Below are positions 31,989 through 63,998 of a DNA stretch of 64,000 nt, in pieces (position 1 is the first letter of the stretch; the number at the start of each line of letters is the position of its first letter). The DNA is from Spongospora subterranea f. sp. subterranea (Eukaryota): NCBI GenBank assembly GCA_049724395.1, contig JAUGWO010000102.1:310001-374000 (forward strand). Direction: 5' to 3'. A model generated the notes under the pieces. That model was not told where the DNA came from, did not search any database, and worked only from the letters and a program-made list of their open reading frames with translations. Made by a program: the position numbers and the translations under genes.

Positions 31989-32125
31989 AAAAGACTTGAT
32001 CAAGAATCTGGAAAATAAATAATTATGAGTCTGTTTGATTGTTAGACATTCTCGCGTTCCCGTCCTATGACCACTCATAGTTATGATCAACCTATGCGTA
32101 CCTCATCGCACCTGTCGGTAATCAG

Positions 32126-35100
32126 ATGTCACAACCCATTGCTGATCGACATCGGGAAAAGTCGGCAAACAGGAATAAAGATGATGGGTACCAGCTACGC
32201 AAGGCGGCAGCTACAATTATATCCGAGGGTTCGTCTTCGCCAAACGCAGAAGCCTGGGATACCCTTATTCGCGGATTGAAAGCTTCCGAGCCAGCTATTC
32301 GACATTTCGCCATAATCAGCATTGATAAGAGTTTCTGCCCTGTTCCAGCCGAATCCGCTGTTGGACATCCGACAAGAAGAGAGATCACCCTACTTTTATC
32401 CGATATCGTGACCAATGATATCAGCGAGCAGAACCGTTCATTAGCCGCTGTTGTTATCGGTAGAATTGCTGGTTCCCTGGGGTTATCCATCCCCTCCATA
32501 GCCAAAGATGGCTTCTCAGTGTGCCTTCGTCATTTCCTGCTGCTACAGAGCGAGAGACACGTCGATGGCGCCACACGACGGTCGGGATATGAAACAGCTC
32601 GCTGCTATGCAATCTACGCTCTGACCAAGATGGTTGAGGTTCGGTCAGGGGGTTTGGGCCCTCGTTGATGACGTCCAACCCTGACTGATATGTGCTGTAG
32701 GATCGTATTGATATACCGACTGGAGAATGGGATCGCCTATCCCCAGAGATCATGGCGATATTAGAGACCCCTGAGCAGTCTCGAGATTACGACTGCCTTC
32801 GTGCGAACGCCATCATGTTCCTCTCGAGTTTGCCCTCAACCCTGCGTAATCGCCAACGAACTCAGCCGTTCTGGGTTCCGATTCGGCCGGTTGTCCATCG
32901 TCTGATCGCTGGCGCCGCCGGGCCCGACCATGTATTAACGGTGGCCGTTTCCCGATTCGTCTCGCAATGGTATGGGCGCGTCCCCGACGCTATCCTCGAC
33001 CGATTCCCGCTATACGATCAGCTATCGGGATATAGCGAGCTGCAATACAGCTTCCTGATGAATTCGGAGAAGGAGGGCGTCTCGATTGGGCGGACACAGC
33101 TGCGAGAGGATACGGGCGCCTGTGCCTATCTGGGCATTGTCGAACGCGACGACGTATTGTCCTTCATCAAGCGTTATAGCCGCCGAATGCAGATCGTCGA
33201 CGTTCTACCCGAGAAGTTCGACCTGACGTTCCAGGCCACCGGGATGATCAATTCGGAGCTGTTCTTCGACAATGGGAACATGAGGCGAACACTTCATCTG
33301 ACGAATCGATCGGCGAAACTGGCGCACCGATTCACGGTCCAGATCGTCCCGAGTCGGTTCTTTACAGTGAGTCCAGCGTTTGGCGAGATTCCACCACATT
33401 CGTCGATCCCGATTAACATCACGTTCGCCCGCGTGTTCCCGTTCGAGAAGGGCATCTCCCGCGGCTATCTCCGTCTACGCTCTTGGACCGGGTTCGCGTT
33501 CGAACGGATCGCGCTGCGCTTCTACAACGGCCCATTCCTGCAGATCGTCAACAGCACGGTGAATTTCGGTCCTTGTCCTATCGGGCGACGATTCACCCGG
33601 CGCCTGTTCATCAAGAACATCGGAATCAACCCGATTGTCTGCAGTATCGACCTCACACGATCTTCGCCCAACACCGGTCCCGAGGGCGAACCGGGTGAAA
33701 AACCACCCGATATCCCATCGACATCGCCCAACGAGTTCGACGTGTTTCCGAGATCGAACGCCATTGCCCCGTCGTCGATCGTCGGGTTCGACATCGTGTT
33801 CATCGCGAGGCGCGCCGATCGTGTCGAATCGCAGCTGCTGGTGAGCGGTGTCGGGCACGATGGCGTCCACGAGGTGCTGCTATCGGGATCGGGCGGATTC
33901 CCGATCAAGGTGCTGGAGTCGGTGATTGATATGGGCCCGTGTCTGCTCAACGACAACGCCGCCACCGCCATCAATATCTGCAACACGGCCCAATTCCCGA
34001 TCCTGGTCCAGTTCGACGCCACGATCGACGACCTGGTGATCCCGTCCGTGATCATCGCGCCCGGCCAGACCCGGACCGTCCCCGTGAACTGGTTTGCCAA
34101 CCGATCCGGCAGCATCGACGAGATCGTCTACATCCGCGCGCCGCCTTGCGATCCGCTCCAGATCGGGTTCGTGGCGTTCGTCGGGCCCGTGTTGACCACG
34201 CCGTTCCAGCACCTCGTTCGAATGCCGTTCGTGTCCGTTCACATGACACTTCAGACCGTTATCCCCGTCCACAATCACTCCCGATACGACGCCGAGTTCG
34301 TGATCGACGGACTCGACGGGTCCCCGTTCTACACGATCGCCGTCGACCCCGTCCGGCACGCCAGAGACCGCGAGTATTTCGCCAACGACTGCGCGGGTAA
34401 ACCGGCGACGAACAAGTTCAAGGAGGCGCTGTGTCAGAGCCGGGAGAAGCGCTATATTGTCAAGGCGCAATCGATGATATTCCTCCAGGTCGTGTTCTCG
34501 ACCCACAAACCCGGGTTTTTCGATCGCGAGTTCGTCGTGCGTATCTTGGCGCCGCGCGTATCACGATGGGCGCCATTCACCCTCCGCGCGGCCGCCACGC
34601 TCGACAACGAGAAGTTCCCGCTGAAGAAGCTCTTGCTGTTCTTCGGCGACGTCACCGTGTTCAAGTCGTCGGAGCTGACCCGGCTGCCGTCCAAGGACTA
34701 CGATGGCGCCATCGAGTCGCGCATGATCTACGGCGACACCTGGGAGGGAATCCCGTCGCGCAACGAGACGTTCGCGTTCCACTCGTCGGACGAATGGGGC
34801 TGGGTCGGGCGTCCGCTGCCCGACGTGGTCGTGGAGAACCTGTCGGCCCGTCCCCACAATTTCTCCATGTTGGTCACGTACCCGTTCCTGGGCGCCAACG
34901 CCCGTCATGGAATATGTGGCGCCTACGATCGCTTGGCCATTCCGAGCACGTTGACCGTCGACGATATCGATCATCTGTCGCCGCTCAACGGATTCATCAT
35001 CATTCGCGATAATTTCGCGAAAACCTCAATGTGCCAGCTGCACCTGCTGGCGACCCATCTCGTCGCCGTCGCCGATGCGCTAGCGCCATCCCGGCTGGTG

Positions 35101-38100
35101 TTCGCCACCGTCGACGTCGATATCGTATCGAGCCTGCCCTTCACGGTCGTCAACCGCAGTGGAATCCCGGTCTGGTTTCGACTGGCGATCCAGACCGACG
35201 GTCTGGCAAGCGGGGACGGGCCGCCAACGCTGGATCCAGCGTTGGACCACGAACCCCTGGTTCAGTCAATCCCCGACCCATCACCGTCCACCGAATCGGA
35301 TCGGCTGTTCTTCTACGATCATTCCTCAACGGCCAAGTGTTTAGGTCCATGGGAGCGCCGAACGATATTGCTGAAATTTCGCTCGGCTGTTCAGGGTCGA
35401 TTTATCGGTCGTCTGCAGGTGATTTACGATGATCCGTTGAATCCATCATCGCCATCGTCATCAACATCCCAATCTGGTCCATCGTCCACCCGATCCTCAT
35501 TCGTGTCGTATTTCGCCGATTTGATCGCCATCGCCGGCAAGCCCGACGTCTCCGCCAGCGTCGACGTCCTGGATTTCGGGAATTGCGGTGTCGGATCGTG
35601 CTCGGATCGTGACCTGGTCCTGTCGAACAGCTCGTCGGAAGACGTTCTGGTCGATCCCGTGATCAACGACCCATTCTCTCTATCGACCGGCGGCGGCGGT
35701 CGCCCCATTCGCATCGCGTCGCGATCGTCCACCACCATCGTCGTGTCGTTTCGTCCGACGATCACGGGGCGGTTCTGGGAGCGGATCCAGTTCGTCTGCG
35801 GCGACAGCGTCAGCGACGTGATCCTGTTCGGCGACGGCGGCGTCATGAGTCTGGTATCGCACCTTGGCCCAGGACGCCATCTCCCGCCCTCCCACGATCA
35901 TCATCACGTCGACGATAACGAGATCAATATGGGGGCGGTTCGCGTCTGTATCTCGTCCACACGTGTGTTCCGCCTGATCAACAACGGCACGATCGACATC
36001 GTCGTCAGCGACATCGTGGTGTCGGCCGACGACGGCCTATCGTACGTGATCTGCGACAACGATCTCGGGGAGAGCGGCGGTAACGACCTGCCCGTGTTCG
36101 GCCATGAACTGTTGGACGGGGCGATGGTCGATTGGGACGAGGTCGCCTATCAGGCCACCTATGCCGACGCCCTTCCCCAATCGCTTTCGACGGACGACGC
36201 CAGATTCCCCCGTGTTCTGCCACCTGGCGCCACCCTCCTCCTTCAGCTGTCGTTCTCGCGCTATCTGACCGGCGTGTTCCGGCCCACGCTCCAGGTCCAC
36301 ACGGCCAACCGATCGGCGATCGGGCGGTTCCTGTTCACACTGCGGTTCAACGTCCAGGACGTGATGGAGATCAACGAGAGCCGGCTGGATTTTGGGACGG
36401 TTCCGTGCTCGAAAACGGGGGAGGTGGCGATCTCGTTCCACAACGATTGCGCCCAGGCGGTGTCGTGGCGACTGGATTGCGTCGACACGATCGGGACGCA
36501 CGTCACCGACCGGACGCGTTTGCCCGTTCGCAAGGACGTGTTCACGGCCAGCCCGTCGTCGGGATCGCTGGCCGGCGGGGCCGATCAGCGAGTGACGATC
36601 CGGTTCACGAGCAATCTCCCCCATTGTCTCTGCACCGCCTTCGCCACTCTACAGACGTCCGATATCGGCCAGACCCGGGTCGAGCTGACGGCCGTCTGTG
36701 GGGCGCCGCGCATAGCGCCATCGGATCGGGAGATGGCGTTCGGCTGCATCAGTTTGGGGTCGAACAAGAGCAGGGTCCTGACCTTGTCCAATGACGGGGA
36801 ATTACCCGCCGCCTTCATCGTCAGGGTGTCGTCGAAACGGTTCCACGTGGTGCCGGTTCGCGGGCGTGATCGCCGGGCGATCGCGACAGGCGATCTGGGT
36901 CAAGTTCCAGCCGGCGGATTCGTCGGAGGTGCTAAGCGATCTGCGGGTGGAGTGGGGCGATCCCGATCGCATCGACCGGCGGTTCGACGTCGCCCTGAGC
37001 GGGTGCGGGGGCAATGCGCAGATCGCCGTCAAGGTGTCGTCGATTGATTTCGGCCTGGCGATGCGGGGGACGGCCACGACCCGCCCCTTGACCATCTATA
37101 ATTCGGGGACGGCCGAGGCCCTGGTCGAGATCGATCTCCCCGATCCATCGCTGTCGTGCGATTCGGGCCCCGTCTTCTTCGTCGAGCCGGCGTCGTCGCG
37201 CGATCTGCTGATCGTGTTCCGCCCGGCCACGGCCGTCGCGATCAACGCCACCGCCTTCGTCGTGTCCAAGGAATCGCCCGGCCAGGAGCGGATCCCGATC
37301 GCCGTTCGAGGTCGTGTGGGCGTCCCCTGCCTGGAGCCCGGCCCCGTCGACCTGATCAACGCCAACACTCTGAACATGGGGATCTGTATGGTCCGACGAC
37401 AGACGACCCGACAGTTCTTCGTCGACAACACAGGGAATATGGATGTGCCATTTCAGGTCGTCATCTACCGCTACCATTCGTCGTCGTCGACCAGCGCCGC
37501 CGCCGCCGCTCGTCACGACACCGACGATCACGCCGGTCCGGATCGCGTCCAGGTCAACGACGATGGCGCCGGCAATCCGGTCCAGACGGTCCGGTCGCAG
37601 TTCCCCCGATGGGAACCGCAGGACGCCCAATGGCCATCGCTCATCGATCATCTGGTCGTGGCCGAACCCGATCATTTCCAGTTCGAGCCCGTGTCCGGCG
37701 TGTTCGCCCGCGGTTCCCGCGTCCATTTCACGGCGCGGTTCGCCCCGCCCCGACCCGACCAGTTCCTGGACGTCCTGGTCCATATCGGGAACCCATCCAT
37801 CCCGCTGGCGTTCGTGGCGTCGGCGCTGTCGGACGAGCCGGCGATCGACATCGACATCCCCGAACGCGTTCTGGACTTCGGTCTGTGCCGGTGCCAGAAC
37901 ACGTTCAAACGGCGGTTCCGGGTGTTGAACAAGGGCAACATCCCCTATATCTATCACCTCGGGCCCGATATTCGCGAACCGCAATGGGCGATCTATCGCG
38001 ACGACTACGAGTCGGCACGATTGGCGTGGTCGGCCCATCTGCGATCGATCGGGTTCACGTTCGCCTATGGGGGGACCTGTCCACGACGATCGCACGACAA

Positions 38101-41100
38101 CGTCCTGGTCATGTTCAGCCCGACGTCGGCGGGGGAGGTCGTCGCCCGTGTTCGCGTCGTCTGCAGCGGCGGTTACGAGCAGATCGACCTGCGCGGGGTC
38201 GGGGGGATATCCCATCTCGACCTGGGTCGTCTTTCCGACTCCGACCAGCACCGCAACGGCGACGTGGTCGATTTCGGCCTGCGCCCGATCGGCCAAGAGA
38301 ACCACGTGACGTTGGTGCTGAGGAACGGCGGGGCGTTGCGATCGGGGTATCTGGTGCGGCGAACGATGCCCGAACAGTTCCGGGTGTTCCCGTTGAGCGG
38401 GCAGATCGAGGGCGGTGCCGAGACGCCGCTGCGAATTTCGTTCAGGGCGACGGGCTATGGCCTGGTCCAGTTCGACCTGGAGATCAAGGGGATCGACAAC
38501 ACGGTGTCGACCTGGAGGATCGTCGGGCGCGGCGGTAAGGGGTCGTTGGCGATCCACTACCTGGACGGGGCCGACCAGAACCTCAAGGGGATCGACTTCG
38601 GCCTGGTCAACGTCGGCAACGTCGTCGAGAAGTCGCTGGTCGTGCACAACGACGGCCAGGTCGATCTGCGATTGTGGGCCGAGTGCGATGACGGCGCCGC
38701 GTTCGCCATTCGTCTCAGTCATCCGCCCCAGTCCTACAAGACCAACGGCGATGTCGACGCGCTCCCGCGCCTCAAAGGATTCCATCGCGTGTCGACCCGA
38801 TCGCTGGGCGCGCTGCTGGCGCAATCGCGGTCGATCGAGGCGCTGATCCCGCCCAAACACCTGATCGTGATCGGAGTGGGATTGGCGGCGATCGCCCCGA
38901 GGAAGTACCAGGGCCTGTTGACCCTGTCGTCCGAGTTCAACTCGATGGGCGTCGCCCTGCGCGGACAGGGCGGGACGATCGCCGTCAACCACGTTGGCGA
39001 TCTGGCATTCGGTTCGGTCGGCGTCGATCACCAATACGAACGGTCGTTGACGATCACGAACACGGGGACGATATCGACCGTGGCGCGTCTGTCGTGGCAG
39101 ATTCCTGGATGGGCGGTCAACAACAGCTCGTCGACCATCGTCCTGACCGGACCGAACACTTCCCGATACGCCAAACTGTGGCGCCAGACGATCACCATGA
39201 TTTTAAGGCTCATACGAACCAGTAAATTGATGAACGGCGCCAGAACACTACAGGAGATCGTCGATCGTCAGTCGTCGTCGCCGCGGAAGTCGCCCGTCGC
39301 CATTAAAAACATGTCGTCGATAATGGACCCGTTATTGGTTCAGCTGGGGAGTGTCCAGGTCAGTGCCGATCAACACCAATCCAATATACGGGATGTGGAG
39401 TCGTTCATATCGCCGACCCATCCGCTGTTCGACACGGCCGTCGGTCTGAAGAACATGGGACACGAGACCGGTTTACGATTATCGCTATTACAGGATCGGA
39501 TTGAGAAACGGATCGTGTCGGAGACGATCGCGTCGTCGTCGTCGTCGTCATCGCCGATAACGGCGCTGCTGGCGTCGATCGGCCCGAACCTATCGGCAAT
39601 ACGCGGCGGTGTCTCGCGACACCCTCATCATGATCGCGATCCGATCGGGAAAGGTGCTCTGACCGTGATCCCATCGTCGATCGTGCTGGATATCGACCAG
39701 CCCATCACGGTCACGGTCGTGGCGTCGTTCCCCAGCGCCGGCGCGTTCGTCGGGTCGCTGATCGTGACGAGCGACGTCCTGGGCTGCGACCCGCATCCGA
39801 TCCGAATAACGGCCCAGGCGATGAGCGCCCGGCTCGTGATCAACGACGGCGGGCCGATATCGTTCGGGCGAATCTCGCTGGGAACGGTCGAGATCGCCAC
39901 ACGAGTCCTGACCAATAACGGTCTGTTGCCGATCCGGTTCACAGTTCGCCACCGGAACTTCGGTCTGACGATCGCCCCGTTGACCGGGTTCCTGGACGCC
40001 GACGAGAACGTCACGATGACGTTCTCATTCCGCCCCAGCGACGAAGACTGGCAACGATCCCCGATCATGATCGACACCGACAGCACCGACACGATCGAGC
40101 TGGCGTTCAACGGCGCCGGCGGCGTTCCCAAGCTACATCTCGCGTCGTTCGACCGATTTGATTTCGGTCGGTGTATGGCGGTACGTTGAACGCCGTTCGC
40201 CCGTCAGGTTTTGGTCGGGGAATCTCTGAACGGTTGTCGCACACAGGGGCGAATATCGAAGAAGGCGATACGATTGCTGAACATCGGCAACGCTCAACTA
40301 CCGATACTGAGGTGCCTCCTCGACCAGACCGTCGTCTTCAACAAGGGCTCGGCTTGGCCCACGACCCGCTTCGCCATCGACCCCGACGCCTTCTTCGACC
40401 TGAACGTCGAGTTCACGCCGCAGAGCGAGGACGTGTTCCGGGGGCGCGTCGTGATCGAGACCGACACGCGCGTCGTCCCGATCGAGCTGATGGGAACGGG
40501 GCGGGAGGCGCTGCTCACGTACCAGGCCCACAATATCGACCTGACCAACACCATCGTCGGGAACGTCTATCGACGGGAGCTGGTGGTCAACAACGTCAGC
40601 GATCTCGACTACCCGATCCAGATCACGATCGCGTCGGCGTCGTCGCCGGACCTGGTCCAGGATTTCGCCCTGGACGCGACCGAGATGACCTTACAGCCGT
40701 TCGAGCAGCGAAGTATTCAGTTGACCTATCGCGCCGCTCGTCAGGTAATTCCCCCGCGAAATCGCCCCCCGGTTCGAATTCACGGAATCTGATCCCGCGC
40801 GAAAACCAGATCGAATCGAGCGTCAATCTGCACATGTCGTCGATCTATTCCGAACACGATGTCGTGGTCCCCGTTGTATCCGGTACCGCCATTATCGCCA
40901 TCGATCAGGAGCAGGTCGAGTTCGGCCAGTTCCAGAAAGGGCACAGCTGCTCGCGCAGCGTCGTGATCCGCAATTCGGGCACGATCGCGGTCGCCTTCCG
41001 GATCCATTCGGCGCGGGATCCGGCCGTGCTCGATTTCTCCCTGTCCCGGTGGAAGGGCCTGCTCGTACCCGATCGGGACGTCGAGATCATCTTCAAGACG

Positions 41101-42885
41101 ACGCTGTCATCGCTGGGGTCGTTCCAGGACGAGCTGTGTCTTGAGACCCAGGTCGACGGGCAACGACATTACATTCACGTTCGAGGGCGTTGCGACACCC
41201 CCATAATCGATCCGTCCAAGTTCCAGCGCGTCGATTTCGGTAAAAACGATTCCGAAGTTCGTGGAATCGCGTCAATAATCAACGACCGGCGATCGGTGTC
41301 TGTTGTTCAGGGGATTGCCTAGTCGGGGAGACGGCCACACAATCGTTCGTGATCGATAACTCGGGCGGATATCCGTTGACCTATCGGATGAAGGCGATAT
41401 TCCCCATCAAGGTGATCCCATCGTCGGGGTCAGTCCAGGCGCTATCGCGACAGCGGTTCGTGGTGCAATGGGTCCCATCTGGCGGTTATGGTCTGCGATC
41501 GACGGTTAAGGCCCACACCAATATGGGCGTGTACGACATCAATATCAAAGGTGGGTCGAGGGGATCTCGTTTCAATCGAAAAAACGATCGTTCGATCTGA
41601 GCGGAATGATGTTCAGGTCGTGGAGCGTATCCCCGATTCACCATCTCCAACGCGTTCCTGGATTTCGGCGTCGGCGCCATTAAACGCGTCTATGAACAGC
41701 GGTTCAAACTGATCAATCGGGGGAAGGTCGGGATTCGGTTCTCGATACCGTATGGGAATGGGGGCGGCGGTGGAACAGGACAGATTGAGGGGAATGGCGA
41801 TAGTCCAGGACAGGGCAAGACCGGCACCGATCGGCGACCCGATGAAGTATCGGCCGGATATATCGTATCGCCAATGCGAGGGGCGTTGGCGGCCGGCGAG
41901 ACCGTTGTCGTCAAGGTCCGGTTCGAGCCCCGCGAATACCGGAAATACGTCGGGAACATCGTGGTTGAGAGCAAAGGGCGGTATCGGGAGGTGGTTCTGG
42001 TCGGGGCGGGCGGCGTCCTGAGATTGGATCACCCCGATCGGGTCGATATGGGCAATTGCCCATCGGGCTATTGGCGAACTCGCCCGTTATCGATATCGAA
42101 TACGGGTGATGTCCCGTTGACACTTCACATCGCTGGGATCAACCTTCAACACGGATTCGCTCTGATTCCAACACCAGAAACAGTCACACTTTCCTCGATG
42201 GAACATCAGGTCGGAAAACGAACAACTTTGCTGTTTTTCATTTCGATTTCCAAATTGTTTTCGAACAACCCATTTCCACTTGTTCGTGTAGATGATCTTG
42301 ATCCGATTACGTGTTGACCCGGGGTTCTCTGGGAAATTCGAGTTCGGTCTGGCGTTGGCCGCTCATGAACGAACATGGAAGATTTGTGTCAGCGGGAACG
42401 CCGTTAATCTGATCGACTCGTTCACCCATCTGACCGAGATCCTGATGCGATCGGACGCGGCAATCGTATCGGGCCCGGTCGCTCTACAGCAATGGCCCAA
42501 TGCGCTGGAGCCCGATCTGGTCATCGTTCCGCCCCCGAACCCGTATCTCGGTGGCGATCGCTCGCCCGAGGCGGCAGCGGTGGCGTCGGTCGTGAGGATG
42601 TTGGTGAACGGGTCTGCTGAGATGATGAATTCGGGGACGACGATCGCGACCACATTCCAGGACCGATTGGTGGAACATATCGAGGGCGGATCCGTTCGGC
42701 CAGAGCGGGACTGTTCAGGTCACGATCGTGTTCTGGAACAGGTCCTGGTGTGGAGTTGCGCCATCACCCGACCCGAGATATCCACGATCGTCTCGGTCAG
42801 GGAGCCCGATCTGGTCAACATTATCCACGATCAGGTGATCGCCGCCCCGCCTGTATTCCTCCCCGAATTAACATATTCCCCATAA
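32126..42885 (+). CDS. Giant (~3,300+ aa) protein with helical N-terminus and a long array of ASH/Ig-like (Hydin/CFAP65-like) domains
   Basis: ORFs 32126-32668, 32752-37047, 36791-40189 and later exons. More than 15 recurring [VIL]DFG...L.N.G...F.V.P.SG units. Apparent frameshift near 36860. Not assignable to a named gene from sequence alone. Confidence 0.75.
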
Positions 42886-43545: not shown

Positions 43546-44089
43546 GATTTAAATAGGAACGGGACAACAACGGAGCGAGAACGAAGGCGATGGAGGTGGT
43601 GAGTTGGAACACAAGCGAGGCCCGTCCAGGGGACAATCAGGAGACCCCAGATCAGGTCCGTGACGGAGTCCGGAGATCCATCGCATCACTTGGCTCTACC
43701 GTGCCAATGCAACGTGCGATCGTTGGCCAGCCAGCGTTGGCACGGGTCTCCATCATTATCAACCAATGATTACATTAGGGGACGGTCCTCGACGGGCGCT
43801 GGCGTTGGGGTGAGATCGATATGAGATCGTGATCCCATAATCAGGTGTCGGATCCACATCATCGGTCGGTTCGCGACCTCAACGTCAGACGGGATTGCGG
43901 GTGCCATGGCGTGAGTGAGGCAACGATCACCAACAGGGAGAACAACGATCATTACAACCGGATGATTGGTCGGGCTCATCAGTTGAACTCGGAATAACAA
44001 CCTAAGGATGGGAAGCTGGTTCGGTCCCGCTGCCGACCAACCATTCTTCAGGCGGCGATATAACATCGGGAAGAAAGAGGATAAACCCA

Positions 44090-45230
44090 GTAGTTGATTA
44101 TATCGACCAATCAACTGCACTTCTACCGATCACGGTTTCGCTCAGAGAAATCTCAAACTTGCACTTGTGAGCAAGTTGAGAATTTCTGAGCGACACCACG
44201 ATTGTTAAAAGTGCAATCAAACTCGTCACCACAACCAGTTCGCGCTGGTTCGCTGTCCCATCATCGCTTTCCTCATCTTGATATTGGTCGGATAATGCGC
44301 TATCGTCAATCGGTCTGCTCCGAACCCATTGTCGTGATATTCGACATCCAATCATGGCCGTCTCCTTCACACGCCTTTCTCTCTGCATTATAAATCGAGA
44401 CGACCCGGTATCTGTTGATTTCAACTTTTCCCAGAATATCCAGTTCAAACTTGATTTTGGTCAACCCCCTCAGCCGCAGGTTCATCAAACCCCCAACGTC
44501 ATTTGTCCAGATCAGACAACGGGAAGATGAAGTCATTTCGCCCGTCTGAATCTTAACAACCGCGGCCATCGTAGGAAAGCGGACGTCGTGGCCCTGTCAA
44601 TGAACGGGAGAAGGAGCGCCGCCGTCGGCTGGCATCTGTATCAGTATTGTGGTGGGTCTTATTCCAAGAGACCACTGCCCACGAAAGGACACATACAATG
44701 CCCCCAGTTCTAACTATCCCGCTTTTACTTCTGCCTGCACCTTTCGATTTGATTCACTTGCAGAGACAGGTTCTCGCATTTGCAGCTCTCATCTTCTATT
44801 AGATAGCGGGGCCTGTGTCAATTCAATGAATACCGCTTTCGCTCTCAGGTATGATCTCGTCGCCAAATCCATCCATCCGCCTCTTACCGTATCTAGTTTC
44901 ACCAGACACGATGTCCTGGCCACACACGAATCTGAGTTCCTCCACCTTCAACTCGGTTCGTATCAACGTCGCACTTCTTTTTTCCTCGTTAATAACTTGT
45001 CTTTTCCCGTCATGTTCGGGATATTCGTGGTTAGTAGAACACAATCCTTCTCTCAATGGGAATTCCCGCATAAGGCACCTCCAGGTTGGAGACATCATGC
45101 ACCAATTAGACCAGCTAAACTTTCCCTTTACGACATGCCGCCACAATCGGGCACTATCATTGGCTCCACCGCCGCGACACAACTCCAGCGACTGGACAAT
45201 CGACAGCGCTTGGTCGCAACACATGGCGTC
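44090..45230 (+). mobile_element. Degenerate Ty3/gypsy LTR-retrotransposon remnant (gag zinc knuckle plus aspartic protease)
   Basis: Across frameshifts: RGPVNEREKERRRR...QYCGG..DHCP (knuckle, ~44585-44685) and LLLDSGACVNSM...FPVMFG (protease). Heavily disrupted. Confidence 0.7.
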
Positions 45231-45464
45231 TGATCAGGGGCGCATCCAGCGTTATCAACCCAAAAATGTCATCGATACGCGCAAGTTCATATGGTGTCCC
45301 AATGCGTTGGGTATCACCCGATAAACTTTCGAGGGGAACTGTCGATATTGATCAACAAAAACGGTTGGGTCCAGTCGCCGTACGACAGTCGGGCAGACGA
45401 TCTTCTATCTTTTTGCATGTCAATACATTATTGCACATGTCAATAAAGCCATAATGCATGCTGG

Positions 45465-47446: not shown

Positions 47447-48561
47447 ATCACTATGGAGAAGGATTCAACTTGTACAGCACTTCTGGCATTGCGATTGCGA
47501 CCTGGAACACGGACGCCATTCAGGTTCACCATATGGGCGCTCAAACAACTCAACATCATCAACATCATCACTACTGAGCTCTGGGAAGATGCTGTATTCA
47601 TGTCATTCTCTGGCATTGGCAATCAAGTGCTGAAGCCAAAAGGAGCAGGAAAGTTAGGGGAACTGGCATCATCATGAACTTGAGTGAGCAGATGAAATAC
47701 GAGATTGACAGTGTAGAGAATGACATGGATGCAAACCTTGACAGCATTAGTAGTAATGACGACGATGACTTGTATGAGCCCCACATGGTTAACAAAAATG
47801 GCGTTCGTGTTCGAGGTCGCAATCGTAATCCATAAGTGCTGTACACGATGAACCATTGTCCATAGTGATCCATGGTTATTATGGGCGTCTCATTGAAGTT
47901 CTCAACAAAGTCAAAAGAGGGACGATCTCTGGAGATCCCATTGAGAGTGGCGGATGTACTCGAGAATGCCATCGAGGACGTAGGCATGCAGCCGTGCGGA
48001 ATTCAAAGACGATGTTTAGGGTCCAGCATCTCCAACGGGGAGCCGCCCTCCTGCCATTGCCGATCACAACTTTTGAATAAAAATCCCACTTGCACCCACT
48101 GCAGGATCAAAAGTTATAATCGGCAATGGCAGGAGGACGACTCCTTGTTGAAGATGCTGGACCCTAAACATCGTCTTCTGAGTTCCGCACGGCTGCATGT
48201 CTACGTCGTCGATGGCATTCTCGAGTACATCCGCCATTTTCAATGAGATCTCCAGAGATTCCCTCTGTCGTTAAGAACTTCAATGAGACGGGATTTTCCA
48301 GCCCTATAATCATCATGGAGAATGATCCATCTTGTACAGCACTTCAATTCGACCTGGAACACGCACGCCATTCAGGTTCACCACATGGGACTCAAACAAC
48401 TCAACATCATCATCGTCATCACTACCGAGCTCTGTAAGGATGCTGTCAAGGTTCGCATCCATGTCATTCTCTACACTGTCAATCTCGTATTTTCACTCAA
48501 GTTCATGAAATTGCCCGTTCCACTGCTCCTTTTTGGCATCCCCAATGCCAGGGAATGAGAA
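47447..48561. repeat. Nested inverted repeats: ~1 kb imperfect palindrome (arms ~47600-48076 / 48107-48560, 30 nt loop) plus a third inverted copy at 47447-47612
   Basis: Manual alignment: for example 47934-48076 matches the reverse complement of 48107-48250 at ~90%. 47447-47612 is a direct copy of ~48313-48470 and the inverse of ~47715-47870. Confidence 0.93.
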
Positions 48562-49108
48562 TCAATTAGTAGAAAGGTAAGGCAGTACCAACTTTAAACG
48601 CACAGCTTCGAATTTGCAGGAATCGAATACAACGCCTAGGAGAGTATGGTTGCGGATTCCGTTAAGGAATTTGCGGCGTTGACAACAGAGCAATTTGGTT
48701 GGAGACGTCATTTCGTAATGGAAGATTCCAAACCTTTTGGCAATGACTGCGAAACCTCTGCCCTTTACGTTGGGCACCTATTGCCCGTCGGCGTCTAGTT
48801 TATACTTTACCGAAAAACTCTTGCGTTTGGTCTCGCATTCCTGTCCCACCATTGTGTTGTGATTTTGAATGTGCTGGTATTGGACTGTGATAGCGTCGTC
48901 GGTACATGGGATCATCAGGATTTGCGTACGCAGTCCGCAAGTCCGCAACAAACCCGAGGCGTTTCAATCCGAATCGATCCAACACTGTGCGCAGTCACAT
49001 GTAAATACAGTTAAGTGTATATGTATCTATTGTAATGTTTAAGAGTCCGTATAGTGCTTTGTTATCATAATATAACAATAATAGGAAGTCCTTGTTTGAC
49101 CAGGAATA

Positions 49109-49860: not shown

Positions 49861-50540
49861 AACACGTCCAGGTTTCCCGGGATCATTAACACGTTGATCA
49901 GAGAAATATGGATCCGGAGCTGTATAAGCCTGCGGCCGGTTCGCCTGGTTCCAATGGACCGCCCAACCAGGGTGACCAGGGAGATTTTATCTCCAAATAA
50001 AATTACGCCTGGTCGTTTTTATTGGAAATGAAATTCGCGTTTCCCGAGGGCTGTCGTCAACGCCCCCCATGCGCAGCTTACCAGCATCTGGAGAACATTC
50101 TGCCAGGCGGCGCAGGCCTGCTTCGCTTGACGTCTCTGTCGGCTGCTCTGCCAATGCCCAACATCGTGTCCGGGTAATGTCTAGACTCCCTAGGGATCAA
50201 ATCAGGGTTGGTCAGATCGTCCACACGACACCGTCCTTGCGATAAATGCGATTCGTTGACACAGTGCCGATGCCACTCCCCATCTATCGAACTCGTTCCA
50301 ATACAACGCCGTTTATGGATACCGTAATCCAGGATTTTTACTCTACCTGGCGTTCTAATTTCAAAATGAGAATATGTCATCTACTTCGTGTTTCCCTACT
50401 TACCATTAGTATAAAATCGACGACCACCGGCAGCGACACACCAATAAATCGCATTCAAACGAAACGGTCAAAGTTAGCATCTTCATAGGTTATATTGCGG
50501 TAAGGCTACTAGAAAAGCAACGAGCTCTGTCCCAGATGCC

Positions 50541-52777
50541 TTAGCGTATAGCAATGTGATCGCAAAGCTTCAGAAGCGTATGACATTTAGAAAAGCATAT
50601 GTCGTCGAGCAACTTCAATGCGTCAGATTCGCTAAATCCCTCCGTGAGCAAATCGTCAATTGCATCGTATAGCGGTTGTCGTCTAGGAAAAAACTTCCCT
50701 TCCGCAGAGCTCTTGGCACCTCTCCATTTCTTGCCAGGACGCGACTCCAGCTCTTCTATCGGCGGTACAACGACGTTGTCCATGGAAATACCGCCGTATT
50801 TCCATTCCTTCCATCCATCGTGCACCGTCGTCACAGATCTGTTCATTCGGAACGGGACAACAACAGCCTGGTCAGGTACAATGACAACCGGCTCGATGAT
50901 ATAATCGGCATTGCCATTTGTGTCAAAATGAGGTGATTCGGAATGACGACTCGCGACAGCGACAGCATCTGCGCTCGCAGCCGATCCAACCTGTGATTAC
51001 CATCAATATTTCTCTTAGTATGGTTTTCAGAAATCATGCAATCAATTCGCCCATACCTGTGTCGACATACAATTTCCCGGTCGCCATCACCTGAAGACAT
51101 TCGTTGCGGAGCATTAGCAATGTTTTGTTCATGTCCTCGTTCACTTGCTGGATCTTCTGGTCGAACTTCTGGTCAAGACAAGAATTTGATCGCGAATGAA
51201 CAGCGCTCGCATGAACCAGCTCGCATAGATGACCGCGATCTTGCCGGACAGCTCAGCAGCAAAGGTCGTGAACGCCTCTGAAGAGAATATCGGATGTTGC
51301 CATATTGCATGAGCTGAATGATCCTCATCAGCCATTAGAATAGCAGAGGATGACTGTTCGCATGTGGTCTAGCAACCTGAGAAAGCTTTGTCCTGCAATC
51401 TCGGTCTTTCTAACGCCGAACGATGACAACGATGTAGCCTGTTGTTGCGACGCCTCCAGACCGGGAAACACCAACTTTCGAAGATGTTCCGGCGGGTCCA
51501 GCGGAGCTCGTGGCAGGTAATACTGTTTGGGATCGGCAGAGACCTCTGCCGAAACCCGAGCGCATTCCCATGGGATGACGTTGTCTGTGTCGACCCCGCC
51601 AGGCGAACGTACTTGCCAGTGGCCATTGTTGTCAACAGAGGCTTCACTTGCACCCAGATTCTCGGCCATTGACGCGCCGCCCTTTCGACCCATCTGCGGT
51701 TTCGTTGTGATGGCCAGACCGAACGAAGCTTGAGCGGCCTTGATGGCTTCATACTGTTTGATGTATGTCATCGGCTTATCTGAATGGATACCATTCGGCA
51801 AAACGAATAAATTGTATCAACTGCTTGCTTCAGAAAGATCAGCCAAGGATCGCCCCGAACTTGAAATTGAAAAAAGAAATACAAAGACAAGCTTTCGAAA
51901 GGGCACAAACTCACTGATGAATGACGCATCAACGCATTCTGTTGCACTTTTCCAAACTGGTTTTTCTTCGATCTTTGCCAAACAGTACGCAGAAGATGAG
52001 CGCCACTGACACCTTCGCCGGGGAAGAATTTATGTCCAATCTCCGACAACTTAAGTCGTCGAAGATTGTCACCTCTGCAGGTCAGAGCGAAAGATAGCAG
52101 ATAATCTGTCCGCTGCTTCAGACCCTCCTCGCTGTCCAAGTCCCAACAGTGCTTGGCAAGTTTGCCAAACTCATGGGCGGAAATTTCATCGGCTAAAGTC
52201 CCAATTCCACGATCTATAAAAAATTGCGGTTTCACGATCCATTACGTCCTTCTTGGAGCTTCTGAGGAATTTTTTGAAACTCGGAATCTTTTGTTAACAA
52301 TCAATTTGGGTTATTTAATGGGAATCTATTGATAACAATCAATTTGGATTATATGGGAAGGCGTGCCGGTGTCGGAAATTCAGGAGGACACCGCCCCAGC
52401 GTATGCTGCAGTCTTCAAAGATCCATACCAGCATTGACGTATCCATCAAGAATATGCAAAACCCAAATGATCAGGGCGGCAGTTCTCCGGTTCAGACGTG
52501 CTGCTGAGCGCAATGGACGAGCGTTTCCGGCCACGCTTATATGGCCAGCGATCTTTCAATTCGTGTAAAAAAAGCAGAAACTTGCTTTCATTGAATAAAT
52601 CATTGTGATATCTTTTGCAAACGTTCCAGTCAAGGAATTATTTCTGTTTTTCGTCGTCTGAGGACTATGCTCGCCGACCTGATATTGAAAACGATGTGCG
52701 GCTTGCAATTCTTCTAACCGTAGGTCAGTTTGTTTCCAGCGCTGTTCCGCTAGAGACGAGACGACGGTCGGATTCAT
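50541..52777 (-). mobile_element. Degenerate CryptonF-type tyrosine-recombinase element (Ndc10-like YR plus GCR1_C domain)
   Basis: YVNAGMDL*RLQHTLG, FIDRGIGTLAD, LLSFALTCRGDNLRRLKLSEI, SKKNQFGK..ALMRH..LCPF, KPQMGRKGGASMAE..GASE..NGHW, YYLPRAPLDPPEHLRKLVFP. C-terminal MNRSVTTVHDGWKEWKYG..PPIEELE..GKKWR..FFPRRQPLYDAI corresponds to GCR1_C. Stops and frameshifts present. Confidence 0.85.
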
Positions 52778-53014
52778 TGTGATGATGTGAAAATGGAGGA
52801 GCACTATCACGAGAGAACCTTGTTGAATACCCAGCGGTAAACAATGCCGGTTCAGCAGACCTACATTTTGTCCCGGAGGCGGTTTTCACCCGGTGAATGG
52901 GAAGACAAATGAAGTTGCCCGAACAATGTCCTGTTAATATGTATTTGGCGGCGATGACCTCTGGCGAATGGCGGCGCCGGCGGCATGGAGAGGGTTCCAG
53001 CGTGCCAGAATGCC

Positions 53015-53300
53015 AACAGGAGGGAATGTGCAACCGTTGAATTCGTCAACAATCAGGAGATCGAACTTGGCATCATCATACCCATCCCACCATTGTGAAA
53101 CCGTTGGTATCTCGAACACCCGTCGTAGCGCGTCGAAGAACGGTGTCTTCCCCATATTGTGCTCCATCCCCAAGTACAGCTGCTTCTGCTTCCGTGCCCG
53201 CGTTTGAACCAGGTTCGCGTTCACCCACTCGATGACAGCCCGAACAGGTCTCGGCTGCGAATAGCGCTGGTCTGTTTCACAATGCGGCCACGTCGCGAAC
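53015..53300 (-). other. Endogenous CRESS ssDNA virus Rep fragment (SF3 helicase), copy 1
   Basis: EWVNANLVQTRARKQKQLYLGMEHNMGKTPFFDALRRVFEIPTVSQWWDGYDDAKFDLLIVDEFNG contains a decayed Walker A, the WWDGY motif and Walker B. Confidence 0.82.
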
Positions 53301-53660
53301 AAATGGGTGAACGCGGGAACAGAAGCAGTTGTAATTGCAAACGGAGCCCAATTTGGGGAAGACTGCTTTGTTCAACGCGCTACGGCGGTAATCGCGGGTG
53401 TTTGAACTAAACTACCGACGGCAGCACAATGGTGGGATGGGTATGATGACGCCAAGTTCGATTTTTTGATGATTGACGAATTCAACGAATGCACATTCCC
53501 TCCTGTCGTGCAGCTCTGGAGGGTTCGATACACTTAAAGACAACGTGGCACGCAGCGCCTATGCAAATCAGTCAGTTTAATTGTGATCATGTCGTCGAAC
53601 AGCGGCCATGCAAAGGGCTTTCGCAGCGGTTCCTGGTTGTTGATTTCGGTGACTATTGCC
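53301..53660 (+). other. Endogenous CRESS Rep fragment, copy 2 (inverted, pseudogenised)
   Basis: KWVNA..QKQL*LQTEPNLGKTALFNALRR*SRVFE..PTAAQWWDGYDDAKFDFLMIDEFNE, then across frameshifts LIVIMSSN (motif C) and LSQRFLVVDF (arginine-finger region). Confidence 0.8.
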
Positions 53661-54009
53661 CCCCCCCCAAATCAAGTGGCGAAGCGATGGGTTTATATTT
53701 AGAATTCTGCGAAAGAAACACTCTGCAATACTTAAACCAGGTTTGTATAAAGTAATGAGTTATAAAATATGGAAAACTATAAGTCACCCCACTCTCTGTA
53801 AATCCAAGTATTTGGCGATTGTACATTACACTGAACAACATGCCCAAACATTGCCCGCCCTTTCTGTGTTTTGTTGTTTGTTAATTCCATCCCCATCGTG
53901 TGAGATCGCTTTTTTTTTGCGAGCACAATATGGAGATCACTGAGCTTCCATCCCCGATTCGGTCCATTCAAACGTCCAACAAAGTACTACTCCACAGTAA
54001 AATCACAGC

Positions 54010-54730
54010 TGGTGTCGATTGAACGGGGTTATGGACTCGCATTCATTTTTAGCAACACAGCAATACAACGCTCGAGGATCGCCAAAGCATTGTAGCTGAA
54101 TCACACACAGGTTGCACAATCATCGGCATTTCTTGGCCTAGCTTTGGCCGATCGATTACAGACCGGGCGTTTCATATTCCAGAACGACGGGAAGTGTTTC
54201 AAAAAATCAAGTCTGCTGATGTTTCGAAAGAAGAGAACGCTGAATCAGGGCTAACGGTTTCAGAAAGTATTTGTCGTGAAAGCAGGTCGTGATTATGGTT
54301 GAGTCGGCGTACAAATAGGAGACAATGATTTTACCAACTTTTCAGGACACAATTCGGGCCGACTGACTCGAACCGCTCGATTCGATAACGGAGGCGATCA
54401 AGACCCATATTTTAACCAAGAGAAGCAATTCGTGGGAGAAAATCAAACCAAATGGACAGTAAAACAAATATGGCTTCAAATTTAGAACGTGCAGTAGATT
54501 TCGTCAACAGCCGCGTTCGATGATATTCGGAACCGAACGCGATTACGAGAGCGGGCATGGGTAGACCACTTCCTAAGCACCATACAGCAGGAACAGGCAC
54601 GATTATAACAACATTGACAGACCAGGAAACACTTGAAGCTCATGAATTTCGATCCTACTATTGCTATTTTGGTAGAAATTATGAAAAAACGTTTGCGATT
54701 GCAACGCCAACAGTACGAGCAATGGACAAA
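54010..54730 (+). mobile_element. Possible Tc1/mariner transposase remnant
   Basis: Fragmentary motifs in the expected order across frames: RLNGVMDS, GRFIFQNDG, a D-S-N-(P)-L-D-like stretch near 54365, TIAILVEIMKKRL...QWT. Very decayed. Confidence 0.35.
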
Positions 54731-55913: not shown

Positions 55914-58156
55914 TTAGTCTTGATAGGTACAGCGGTTTTCAGCATCTGAGCAATCGTCCGAACGTTGACTGTGACGCCTGAAGGGTCCAGAGGAGCTTGT
56001 ATCCTTGGCCCAAACTGCCTCGCTGCCACAAGGAAACCGTTGTCAGGAGCGAGAGCATCGTCAACTTGACTAACACATGCTGACGTAAACGCTGAGATTG
56101 TGCTTCATATCTGGAGCAATACCGATGGCTTTGCATCGGTTGCCCCAAAACCTGCCATAATATTTAAGTCGATCGAGCGAATTACAAAGCACATTGAGCA
56201 CCTTTGGTCCATAAGCAATACGCCCGTGCATATGATGGGAATTGAGGCTCGCATCGCTTCCGAAGTTGCTCCTAGGCCGCCATGTATAACGACACAATCA
56301 GCACGTTCGAACAGCTTGTTGAACGGGGCACCTCGGGCTTGGAACACAATGTTTTTGGATATAAGCTCGTCAAGCTGAGCTTGAGACCTTGAGCACAGCG
56401 TTTGCATGATACTGTCGCCGAGAAGAGAAACAATTCTGGGCTTCCTTTGACATTGTTCAGCCAGTCGGATCACAATCTTAGTGATGTCTTCTCTCGGAAT
56501 TGGCCTGAAAGCAATAAGAATAAACATTAACACATAATCAACTGATTGACACAAACATTGATGAGAATCCGATGACAACCACAGGACAGGAGTCGGCTTT
56601 AGCTTTATCCAGAAACGAGACCAGGTTAGGCTCTAGTTCAACGACGTCGGACCTATTGTTGTCGGTATACATTAAGGTCGATCAAAACTGACTAGGAAAA
56701 CACTTACGTCAGGTATATGAAATCAGTAAGTACAACCGAGGAAGGCCAATCATTAGGACGGCCTCCAAACGCAACTTCGTTGATGGGAACCACAATTGGC
56801 GACGACTGCTCCAAAATGTGATTCCACGATTTACTTGTAGGCGCTAGGCCTCGTCTCCTTCTCAACGCTGTTAATGTAGGATAGTCTAGATACGATTTCA
56901 GGGTGCCAATGAACCCGTGGGAGAGGATTGTGTCCTCGATCATTAACGGAATAGCATTCTGGCTTAGACTCTCCAACGGAGGATATTGGGATGACGGTAT
57001 CACGGTAGGCTGTAGTATGAAACCGAGCATGGGAATATTGAGCTTCTCGGATAGTATCATCGCAATAGATGCCATTGTAAATCTGGATGCGAAAATAATG
57101 ATTGGGTAAAATACATGAAGCGATTGAGAACGTTTACCCGTATATGATAGCTGAAGGCTGTAGCAATTCTGCCCACCAGAAAACTATGGGCTCCGATGTG
57201 AAGAATTCGGCTTCTGTCCTAGCTAGGATCATGGTTTGAATCATTACTGATCTGGAATGTAAGGCCCAACGGAAAAAATCGCGAGAGACCTTTGCGCTTG
57301 TGTCACCTCCAGAGGGCCGGAAACGGATACCGCCTCGGGAAAGCTTTCTAAAACACAGAGATATATGAGCAAAGTCAAGAACGCGAATTAGTGGTGATCA
57401 CCTGGAGTGAGACATGATGAAGTCTTTATAGGCCAATTCCGTGCAAATCGTCACTAGCCAGTTGCGTTGTTCTGCTAATCCGATAGCCAAGGCGACGAAC
57501 GGTTGAACATCTCCACGAGTGCCTCTTGTGATGATCATCACATGTTTATCGAACCGGCTCACGTCGTTGTATGGCGATTCCATGGGGGCAGGCCAACCAA
57601 CGGGAGTGCGAATCACGTTGATGTGCAACTCGGTTGGGACGTTCAACGACTTCTTAACCATAAAATCCCCGTTATCGAGCTGGAGCAATAACGAACGGAA
57701 CGGGCGCTTGACTAGGTCGCCTAGTCGAATAGAAGTTCTGCCAACCCGATACCAGCTGGACATTACATCCCTAATGAACACATGCATTTAAGCGTGCTAA
57801 TGCCTATTGAGCGTCTAGTCTCACCAGCTGTAGATTTGAATGTCAATCTCATCGGATCGAGCCAATCCGGAAAGATTAGCGAAGGAATTGAAAACAAGAC
57901 TGTTGAATGGCTTTAGAATTTCGCCTTCATCCAGATACAATTGTTTGTCTCCGACGCTGATGCGTATCCAGAGTGTTCGGCCGAACAGATTGGCGAAGGC
58001 ATTTCCCGGCAAATGAATGACGCGGTTGATGCAGATTAGACAATTATCATCAGACCTGTCTTCCTCTTCTGTGAACTTATAGGACATTCGTCCAGCTGCA
58101 TGGATTTGGGCAGTAATATCGGCGCTGATCGATCGTTCTAGGACGTCGTGGTCCAT
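55914..58156 (-). CDS. Sterol 3-beta-glucosyltransferase-like (GT1, Glyco_transf_28 N-domain), multi-exon; 5' end may extend to ~58629
   Basis: IITRGTRGDVQPFVALAIGL, RPNDWPSSVVLTDF, PFNKLFERADCVVIHGGLGATSEAMRASIPII...DQRFWG. Confidence 0.85.
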
Positions 58157-60505: not shown

Positions 60506-61239
60506 CTATTTGTGTTTCTTTTTCTGGACCTTCTTGATGTAGAATTCGAGCTCTTTTCCTTCAAGGATATATCCATCACAGCGACCCGATTGTCCAGGGC
60601 GCGACGATACACAGGCGTACAGACGACCGCTCATGAAGTGCTCAGCAACCTTGGGGTCAATAACAGAGGCGGCCAGACGGGCCTTCTGCTTCTTGACAGC
60701 CGCCTCGCTGACGACGGCGGCGTCCTCAGCCGGCTTCTCGTTCTTCTTCAAGCCCAGATCGACACCGTAGTGCTGCGTGTACCATTGACGGAAAGGAGTG
60801 GCGTCGATAACGACAATGCATCCTGAACAAAAAATGCAAAAAAGGGATCAGAAATATTCCCGCTAACGTGCACGCCGTCGTTGGCACCTTTGACCAAGGT
60901 CTTGGTACGAACAAGCTCGTTCGACGTGGCGTTGTAAACGACATCGATAATACGAGAACGGCGGGTAACTACCTCCGATCCCCAGGAGAAGTTGCCGGTT
61001 TCCAATCGCAGAGCGCGGAATTTCAGATTGCCACCGCGACCACGAACCACTCGGATTCTGATCAGATATCACTCAGACCTCATGATTCTGTACAATTCCA
61101 TAAACGAGGGATACCTCTTCTCGCCAATCTTGGTGTTGGCCGCCGGTCGTCCGAGCTCATATTTGCGCTTCTTCTGGTGGATTTTACGGCGACCACCGGT
61201 GGCGCGTCGCTTATGGCGCGAGTCGCGAGAGATACCCAT
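60506..61239 (-). CDS. RPS8: 40S ribosomal protein S8 (two introns)
   Basis: [82 protein letters not shown]. Confidence 0.98.
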
Positions 61240-61447: not shown

Positions 61448-62303
61448 TTATTTAGAAAATTCGAAATCGGTCATCAATGGTACATGATCAGAGCCATATT
61501 TGTGAATGACCCGACGAAACAAATCGGGCCCTGGGATGTCATTCGTGAAATGCAGTTGATTCACGTTGAGTCCAGCAGAATGCAAAACGTAATCGAGTCT
61601 GAACGATTTGTGTTTTGGGGAGATCCAAGTCGCTGTGGGACACGATCGATATGCGTCATGAAGAGTTGACATTTGCGGGATCAGATTCGGTAATCTGTCC
61701 GGGGTGGCGTTGAAATCGCCACACCAGATGATACGACTGGTTCGCCGGCGACGGGTTTCGACGAGATCGGTGACCGCTTGCGCCTGCTGTCGACCAACTC
61801 TACCATATCCTTTCCAGCTCAGGTGAACGTGTGCGATGATCAGGTGATCATCGGTCGAATCCGCTCCTTGACATGTCATGATTTGCCCAGCACTGCCTTC
61901 GCCGCTCCAAACGTGGTTCGAGACGTGAACATCGCTTAGCATTGCCGACCGTTTCACCATCATGATCGTACCGTGATCGATTGGCGCAGTCGTTGGGCAA
62001 TTACCAGATAGCTCTGATATATGATATAGGTTGGCGAACATGGATCTCAGATGGCATAGCTCATTAGCCTGATAATCGCTGATAAGAACCGTTTTTACAA
62101 ACGTCAATCCTTCGGATCATCACCTGCACTTCCTGCAGACAGACGATGTCGGCGTCAGATGACTGAATTGTGCTATGAATACGGGCGCGTCGCAATTCGC
62201 CAGAAAGGAGCTCGGAACGATCTCGAATATTGGGGTAAAACGAGGGAGTGCACCAGACTTCTGCTAAAATATTATGTGTGAAAAGGCGGAATCGCCTGTT
62301 CAT
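61448..62303 (-). CDS. Endonuclease/exonuclease/phosphatase (CCR4/nocturnin-like) protein
   Basis: FTHNILA, ADIVCLQEV, HVHL, WCGDFNATP, LDYVLHS, GSDHVPL. One intron near 62067-62123. Start approximate. Confidence 0.9.
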
Positions 62304-63610: not shown

Positions 63611-63998
63611 TCACTGTCTTTTATCCGGATCACGTGGCATCACCAAGCCTGTTTCAGGATCCGTTCCGAGTGGCCGGCGAAACAGAAGGATGTGAGGCTC
63701 CTGGAATGAGATTCACAATTAGCAACGGTTTCAAAGTTCTGTGCAAAAGAATTACAGGCCGATGAACTTCGTAGTGAACCCAGCCACGACTCTGCCGAAA
63801 CCCCGAGCTCGCGCCATTCCTCTTCGCTAAGAATACGAGCTGGCATGATTGCTTTGCCCATTTCTTTTGGCAGCGTTACGTGACTAGTTCCCGGTTCGAA
63901 TCAGATTCTGCAGTACAAGGATACGCGACGGAGGCTGACCGGTATTCATATTCGTCATCAGTATATTTATCGGAATATTCAAAATCGTTCGGCGGCAT
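63611..63998 (-). CDS. CKS1: Cyclin-dependent kinase regulatory subunit (two introns)
   Basis: YSDKYTDDEYEYR|HVTLPK...LSEEEWRELGV.QSRGWVHYEVHRP|EPHILLFRRP. One extra T near 63798. Confidence 0.96.

Follow-up and report, generated by a model that had tools for sequence, protein, structure and literature searches.

How did two fragments of a viral replication gene come to lie back-to-back in the genome of Spongospora subterranea f. sp. subterranea, and does the inverted repeat that they form do anything? Endogenous Rep sequences of the gemini-, nano- and circovirus types have been described as widespread in plants, fungi, animals and protists, where most are truncated and degraded and many lie among transposons (Liu et al., 2011; PMC3198968). 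Because Rep fossils of circular single-stranded DNA (ssDNA) viruses are known from so many eukaryotes, the element itself is ordinary; its layout is unusual. We analysed a stretch of 64,000 nt (the window; positions 310,001 to 374,000 of contig JAUGWO010000102.1, assembly GCA_049724395.1, forward strand, numbered here from its first letter), in which two Rep-like copies stand head-to-head between 53014 and 53603. Among the papers listed in a literature search, no description of an inverted Rep pair was found, which is weak evidence of absence. The reading that we favor, at a probability of roughly 0.55, is an endogenous viral element (EVE) made of two differently cut SF3-helicase pieces of the Rep of CRESS-DNA viruses, joined head-to-head; its likely donors are two related but distinct genomes or a single lineage sampled twice, and it is probably inert.

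The minus arm of the pair lies within an open frame of 145 codons (52934–53371, minus strand). A phmmer comparison of its translation with 1.84 billion representative proteins returned 322 proteins at E ≤ 1e-3 (best E-value 1.3e-13), and the matched part corresponds to about residues 190–290 of relatives that are 300–500 amino acids (aa) long. Gemini_AL1, the geminivirus-type Rep catalytic domain, was present at E ≤ 1e-3 in 16 of the 20 top relatives (15 of them above the Pfam cut-off), and the RNA_helicase domain was present in 8 of the 20 top relatives scanned; the ten best relatives are located on contigs of 1.1–5.1 kb. The nearest Atlas clusters, mostly Cressdnaviricota, were labelled RNA_helicase / Cressdnaviricota at 0.89, no more than a lead. 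Neither the 145-aa ORF nor the plus-arm ORFs had a Pfam match, and the 145-aa ORF had no PDB match at E ≤ 10 and only a chance match in PHROGs (E 0.2). Likewise, tblastn against phage records gave no match, a search of viral contigs for related loci with the ORF as query gave 11 pattern matches of which 0 were confirmed, and a search for longer homologous proteins gave 19 candidates, none of them significant; Rfam and tRNA scans of the 64-kb window returned nothing. Since the ORF itself lacks a Pfam, PDB or PHROGs match, its identity as Rep is taken from the domains of its relatives. These relatives are at most 49% identical to it, which points to a lineage otherwise unsampled.

To delimit the two copies, we built a 349-position Rep profile from 150 relatives and ran hmmsearch over the window. 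The minus copy (53014–53293, minus strand) covers profile positions 187–276, from upstream of Walker A through Walker B, in a single open frame with 0 stops and 0 frameshifts. It matched the profile with 91.9 bits (E 1.5e-29) at 53293 to 53030, or 87.0 bits against the whole window, and the nucleotide alignment extends it to 53014. With the 322 database hits, this match places the sequence with the Rep of CRESS-DNA viruses, a protein with an HUH nuclease and an SF3 helicase. The plus copy (53304–53603, plus strand) covers about positions 208–314, is broken and runs in two frames, and spans WVNA, Walker A, Walker B and motif C (IVIMSSN). Its WVNA block (53304–53315, positions 208–210) is identical to that of the minus copy, its first part lies at 53317–53415 (positions 220–252, E 2.5e-07), and its second part, which holds motif C in the second frame, lies at 53412–53603 (positions 250–314, E 3.4e-09); the tail by itself (positions 277–314) scored weakly (E 0.0074). 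Each copy has a part that the other lacks: positions 187–207 occur only in the minus copy and 277–314 only in the plus copy. An extension of the minus copy past 53014, where tblastn alignments with several relatives reached as far as about 52946, was dropped after the sub-profile 277–316 proved unsupportive and the tails could not be aligned as DNA.

By their likeness to these relatives, then, both arms are Rep SF3-helicase sequence. The HUH nuclease domain (positions 1–186) had no match in any frame of the whole 64-kb window, and neither copy has a start codon. With the nuclease domain absent, both copies are fragments and not Rep genes; the label "Rep" that the initial annotation gave them is right for the helicase half, but the nuclease half is missing. 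The helicase motifs are kept to different degrees. Both arms retain GKT of Walker A, and at the first Walker A glycine (position 228) the minus copy has Met and the plus copy Thr; neither residue occurs there in any of 149 relatives (G in 123/149, S in 16/149, A in 10/149). Walker B reads LLIVDEF in the minus and FLMIDEF in the plus copy, in which the residues D271 (143/149 relatives), E272 (144/149) and F273 (137/149) are conserved. Motif C, with S312 in 131/142 and N313 in 140/141 relatives, is found only in the weakly scoring tail of the plus copy and is missing from the minus copy.

Could the open minus-strand frame be translated as a domesticated host protein? It offers 145 open codons with GKT and the DEF of Walker B retained, but we regard this as scarcely credible. 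The first ATG is codon 69, inside the P-loop; codons 1–25 read the plus arm and the spacer in antisense; Rep likeness is absent from roughly the last 30 codons; and the frame has Met for the first Walker A glycine and lacks motif C.

Decay is plain in the plus copy, which carries three TAA stops and two frameshifts in total. A loss of 23 nt, kept in the minus copy at 53193–53215 (minus strand; 17 nt between two AACGCG repeats plus 6 nt), removed about positions 211–220 and shifted the frame. The first TAA (53332–53334) corresponds to TAC in the minus copy and to position 225, a Tyr in 90 of 149 relatives; the second (53389–53391) stands where the profile consensus is Tyr; and the third (53535–53537) lies outside the repeat, upstream of motif C. 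An insertion of 5 nt (53405–53409), an ACTAA-like duplication, makes the other frameshift, between VFE and LPTAAQWW. The minus copy in turn lost 9 nt that lay between CGG repeats and that the plus copy retains at 53385–53393 (plus strand; positions 243–245); this loss is in-frame and leaves a gap of 3 residues in the profile alignment, where the plus copy is ungapped. It had been proposed that each copy has its own short deletion between microhomologies (aacgcg; cgg), which is correct: the profile of 150 relatives polarises each difference as a deletion in that arm. Within the shared part, all four disabling lesions fall in the plus copy, a distribution with a two-sided P of ~0.12 and with too few lesions to test. 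States seen in 0 of 149 relatives occur in the plus copy at positions 225 (stop), 228, 253, 267, 269 and 275 and in the minus copy at 227, 228 and 236. Since such residues fall on conserved columns in both arms, part of the divergence between the arms is decay.

The arms were aligned in a curated alignment, which places the minus arm at 53014–53227 (minus strand) and the plus arm at 53304–53508 (plus strand). It comprises four ungapped blocks, 53227–53216 with 53304–53315, 53192–53124 with 53316–53384, 53123–53113 with 53394–53404, and 53112–53014 with 53410–53508 (minus and plus strand, respectively), in which 159 of 191 aligned nt (83%) are identical. A repeat search returned two inverted repeat pairs, one of 94 nt (53016–53109 and 53413–53506; 87% complementary) and one of 75 nt (53120–53194 and 53314–53388; 79% complementary). 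In a control on one arm, the score was 70, whereas 500 shuffles averaged 7.4 and none scored as high, which puts the repeat far beyond chance. The similarity ends sharply at 53012/53511; the tails beyond were matched in score by 397 of 500 shuffles. The whole pair is present in DNA contigs from two studies and is therefore not an artefact of one assembly: a contig of 846 nt (X1, which may be the source sample of the window) covers 52808–53653 with 0 differences, and a contig of 14,974 nt from a separate study (X2) covers 52808–53900 with differences at 53659, 53809 and 53856, all outside the Rep pair. These results confirm the inverted head-to-head pair claimed in the initial annotation. The contigs of both studies bridge the pair and its flanks, and the window is shared with spliced host genes, as for an EVE. 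Just past the plus copy lies a C run (53658–53668), where the X1 DNA contigs stop and resume and where X1 and X2 show one-base length differences.

Between the arms lies the stretch that would form the hairpin loop (53228–53303, 76 nt). A spacer of ~70 nt had been reported, and a spacer does exist, but it is not neutral filler: most of it (53228–53293) is the additional 5′ Rep sequence of the minus copy, profile positions 187–207, which the plus copy lacks. The profile alignment, read together with the sequence, places the head-to-head junction somewhere in about 53288–53303, a range within which base-exact placement is impossible. No third Rep copy was found in the 64-kb window, either by tblastn with the minus-strand ORF or with the Rep profile in six frames.

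Where did the two copies diverge, in viruses or in the host chromosome? The substitutions cited earlier as signs of coding constraint (ACA/ACT, GAT/GAC, LLIVDEF vs FLMIDEF) are all present in the arm alignment. By Nei-Gojobori counts over 61 codons (Sd 12.5, Nd 16.5), dN/dS between the arms is 0.28 (dS 0.45, dN 0.125; bootstrap 95% interval 0.13–0.58); 45 of the 61 codons are identical (74%), and 16 amino-acid columns differ. A less well aligned version, with three short 5′ blocks misaligned around the 23-nt deletion, gave 0.36. When 30 random changes were simulated neutrally at the observed transition share, the median was 0.75 and a value of 0.28 was reached with P 0.009. Across five mutation models, P was 0.007–0.01 without CpG hypermutation and rose to 0.07 at most with kappa 4 and 10x CpG; the CpG observed/expected ratio in the window is 1.04–1.45, that is, without depletion, so the CpG-heavy models are unlikely to apply. 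CpG decay is, by the same ratio, an unlikely origin of the synonymous excess, and RIP-like mutation was rejected, as the 30 differences comprise 17 transitions and 13 transversions.

This excess of synonymous change is moderate support for two donor genes that had already diverged, as against dead DNA duplicated in place. The initial annotation had read the arms as two viral variants or old EVE paralogues, for which a dN/dS near 1 would have been unfavorable; the observed 0.28 agrees with it, but the support for constraint is moderate only, because the alignment has 61 codons, the differences by codon position (11/5/14; chi-square about 4.2) are not significant by themselves, and residues of decay occur in both arms. 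The synonymous-rich divergence would make this one locus with two samples of a past viral lineage.

Our preferred reading, a decayed, apparently low-copy EVE, may be put as a sequence of steps. Two Rep genes, from two related viruses or from one lineage at two times, would have diverged while working and been broken at different points, with most of the divergence between the arms arising while Rep was a working viral gene. The fragments may then have been captured in inverted orientation at the repair of a chromosome break. If the viral dN/dS is taken as about 0.1, a rough partition would assign about 0.09 substitutions per site over both arms to later neutral decay and about 0.36 of dS to the time before integration. 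For one break to take up two different viral genomes would be coincidental and calls for co-infection or a hot spot.

Under the main rival reading, a single dead Rep fragment could have been duplicated locally in inverted orientation, by fold-back priming or break repair, after which an asymmetric central deletion stabilised the palindrome and neutral drift brought the arms to 83% identity. Several features are what this course would leave behind. The spacer continues one arm, as it also would after a fold-back duplication and a later central deletion; each arm is the other's nearest relative, with 74% of codons identical against at most 49% for database relatives; and the deletions in both arms are flanked by microhomology, which is typical of host repair. 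Both arms, moreover, share rare states at positions 228–229 (a residue other than Gly at 228 and E at 229), so the sequence from which both descend may have been odd or dead to begin with. Against it stand the dN/dS of 0.28 and its upper bound of 0.58, as 0.28 was reached by 0.7–1% of neutral simulations without CpG bias, and the fact that neither copy is a subset of the other (187–207 vs 277–314), so two further deletions would be required. On balance we hold a local duplication to be unlikely, and the capture of pieces of two diverged Rep genes remains the reading that we prefer.

After local duplication, the next alternative is a transposon family that carries Rep. Two paralogues of a Rep-bearing mobile element, or older endogenous copies, could have spread under selection on Rep and become adjacent through nested insertion or rearrangement in a spot rich in transposons; copies within transposon families do show a dN/dS below 1, and the pair adjoins a decayed Crypton-like element (NDC10_II, GCR1_C, 50.5–52.2 kb) and high-copy repeats. 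A geminivirus-like transposon has also been described in a fungus (PMC3198968). The abundance of the pair speaks against such a family. At ≥90% likeness, each DNA run has one contig on the pair, with a word depth (27.9 and 59.8) about that of its long unique neighbour, word depth not being the same as copy number; the short contigs at 52644–52790, for comparison, sum to a word depth of 600–2000. This suggests that the Rep pair is not a high-copy repeat, within a contig matching that is blind to paralogues below 90% identity. The 64 kb contain no further Rep fragment, and neither terminal repeats nor a transposase are seen beside the pair. We therefore consider a mobile-element origin quite improbable, and an EVE of apparently low copy number the better description of the locus.

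A Helitron origin was rejected on domain content, since the helicase of Helitrons belongs to another superfamily than SF3. A Replitron origin was rejected on the same ground: as far as the published account describes them, Replitron transposases have a Rep domain and an oligomerisation domain and no helicase domain (Craig, 2023; PMC10288648), whereas the sequence here is an SF3 helicase whose relatives lie on virus-sized contigs. What the Rep pair has in common with Replitrons and Helitrons is a distant link to the CRESS-DNA Rep and the possibility of diverged copies in one genome (PMC10288648).

The pair shares most with the known endogenous Rep sequences. Tobacco has germline geminivirus-related DNA. 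Like the endogenous geminiviral sequences of yam (PMC5014472), the pair is a geminivirus-type Rep sequence integrated and inherited in the host germline; the yam and tobacco sequences are described as multi-copy, with some intact and expressed under selection in plants, whereas the pair is apparently low-copy, is without the nuclease domain and has one copy broken. The elements described by Liu et al. (2011; PMC3198968) are similar in being Rep-derived, in lying in non-coding host DNA near transposons, in their stops, frameshifts and indels, and in having relatives with the geminivirus-type Rep catalytic domain. The pair differs from them, as they are described there, in holding only the helicase half, in two diverged, differently cut and inverted pieces.

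If the locus were transcribed throughout, would its RNA form a duplex? The initial annotation had suggested that a read-through transcript would fold into ~200 bp of dsRNA, and as thermodynamics this is true. The predicted fold of the minus-strand RNA has −316.2 kcal/mol (z −26.9; shuffles average −165.6), and that of the plus-strand RNA has −313.4 kcal/mol (z −21.5), that is, a long inverted repeat predicted to fold into an extended duplex on either strand. Its perfect duplex runs are 25, 17 and 15 bp long, with a run of 38 bp on the minus-strand RNA when G:U pairs are included. On that strand, 170 of the 191 positions are paired with G:U, and 21 unpaired positions and four indel bulges interrupt the duplex.

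Transcription of the pair itself is represented by a sole RNA-seq contig of 159 nt (53110–53268; X3), with 0 differences and a word depth of 3.2. It overlaps the minus arm and the spacer, each in part, and weighs against calling the locus silent; contigs of this kind give neither the strand nor the ends of a transcript. RNA contigs over the plus arm or the junction are absent, blanks as uninformative as those at 44001–45334 and 48003–48669. X3 and X5 are one sample, identified as RNA by spliced GT..AG joints in neighbouring genes: introns of 50–65 nt in minus-strand genes appear in the RNA contigs at 56149–57824, 60821–61115 and 63699–63940. X4 and X6, which have another organism code and study, agree almost completely with X3 and X5 in contigs, depths and joints; they look like duplicates of that data set and were not taken as independent evidence.

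A possible source of this RNA lies upstream. A spliced glycosyltransferase-28-like gene (about 55.3–59.7 kb, minus strand) is transcribed towards the Rep pair; it has at least six GT..AG introns of 50–57 nt and long RNA contigs, and its exons include one with a Glyco_transf_28 match (E 1.5e-07) and another with a weak EryCIII-like_C match. Downstream of this gene, X5 RNA contigs lie at 53659–53808 and 54211–54653. Weak read-through from the 55.3–59.7 kb gene across the Rep pair is thus possible.

Whether such RNA would serve the host is a separate question, and one that fits any of the origins weighed above. In a working hairpin-RNA locus, a transcript over both arms would fold into an imperfect dsRNA of ~200 bp and give small RNAs that silence related CRESS-DNA viruses. 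The strong hairpin predicted on either strand, with its long duplex runs, and the RNA contig at 53110–53268, with those at 53659–53808 and 54211–54653 as possible read-through, are compatible with this, and inverted viral integrations do feed siRNAs in tomato (PMC9868043). Yet no contig joins both arms; the 83% identity and the four indel bulges carry no sign of selection or gene conversion preserving the duplex; and 21 of 191 positions would stay unpaired even with G:U on the minus-strand RNA. We accordingly think a working hairpin locus very unlikely, and the small-RNA defence role offered in the initial annotation is speculative. As nothing in the sequence suggests upkeep of the duplex, we read the locus as an inert fossil that would have no present function, any hairpin RNA being a by-product of low-level transcription.

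The closest parallel in layout is tomato, in which inverted-repeat rearrangements of endogenous pararetroviruses yield siRNAs (Valli et al., 2022; PMC9868043). As in those loci, viral fragments form an intergenic inverted repeat whose transcript could become dsRNA. The differences are that the source is an ssDNA-virus Rep and not a reverse-transcribing virus, that the host is not a plant, that small RNAs and silencing were measured in tomato (PMC9868043), and that the arms here are short (~200 bp) and only 83% alike. A layout of the type that feeds antiviral small RNAs in tomato bears on heritable RNA-based immunity outside plants and animals. In its strongest form, a live hairpin gene, the read-through from the strongly expressed glycosyltransferase gene (2 kb upstream, minus strand) would cross both arms and be diced against a still-circulating CRESS-DNA virus and give an RNAi memory drawn from two donors; we give this a very slim chance. 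If true, it would mean that a flagellated eukaryote, neither plant nor animal, keeps a heritable RNAi memory of infection by ssDNA viruses. If no small RNAs come from the locus, it is simply a dated marker for paleovirology.

The surroundings of the pair yielded several further observations. To its left, at 52644–52790 and 52908–52941, short DNA contigs with loose ends pile up to a summed word depth of 600–2000, against 28–60 nearby; these high-copy repeats may mark the truncation of the minus copy. The decayed Crypton-like element extends over 50529–52778 (minus strand), its NDC10_II and GCR1_C frames split over several ORFs, and is matched by RNA contigs 90–95% alike, so other copies of the family are transcribed. 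Between this Crypton-like remnant and the Rep pair, a 32-nt unit occurs in two tandem copies (52283–52352) that are 91% alike and spaced at 38 nt. On the other side, an ORF with an Exo_endo_phos domain (61448–62116, minus strand) may be a LINE-like remnant, and the spliced minus-strand transcript at 60821–61115, with introns of 57–65 nt, adjoins it. Further away, the block at 32000–42000 holds intron-poor ORFs of 1448, 1135 and 386 aa with HYDIN/CFAP65/ASH Ig-like domains; its G+C content is 59–65%, against 42–49% outside, with an abrupt change at the block. A second set of HYDIN-like ORFs, at 1111–6764, has an ordinary composition.
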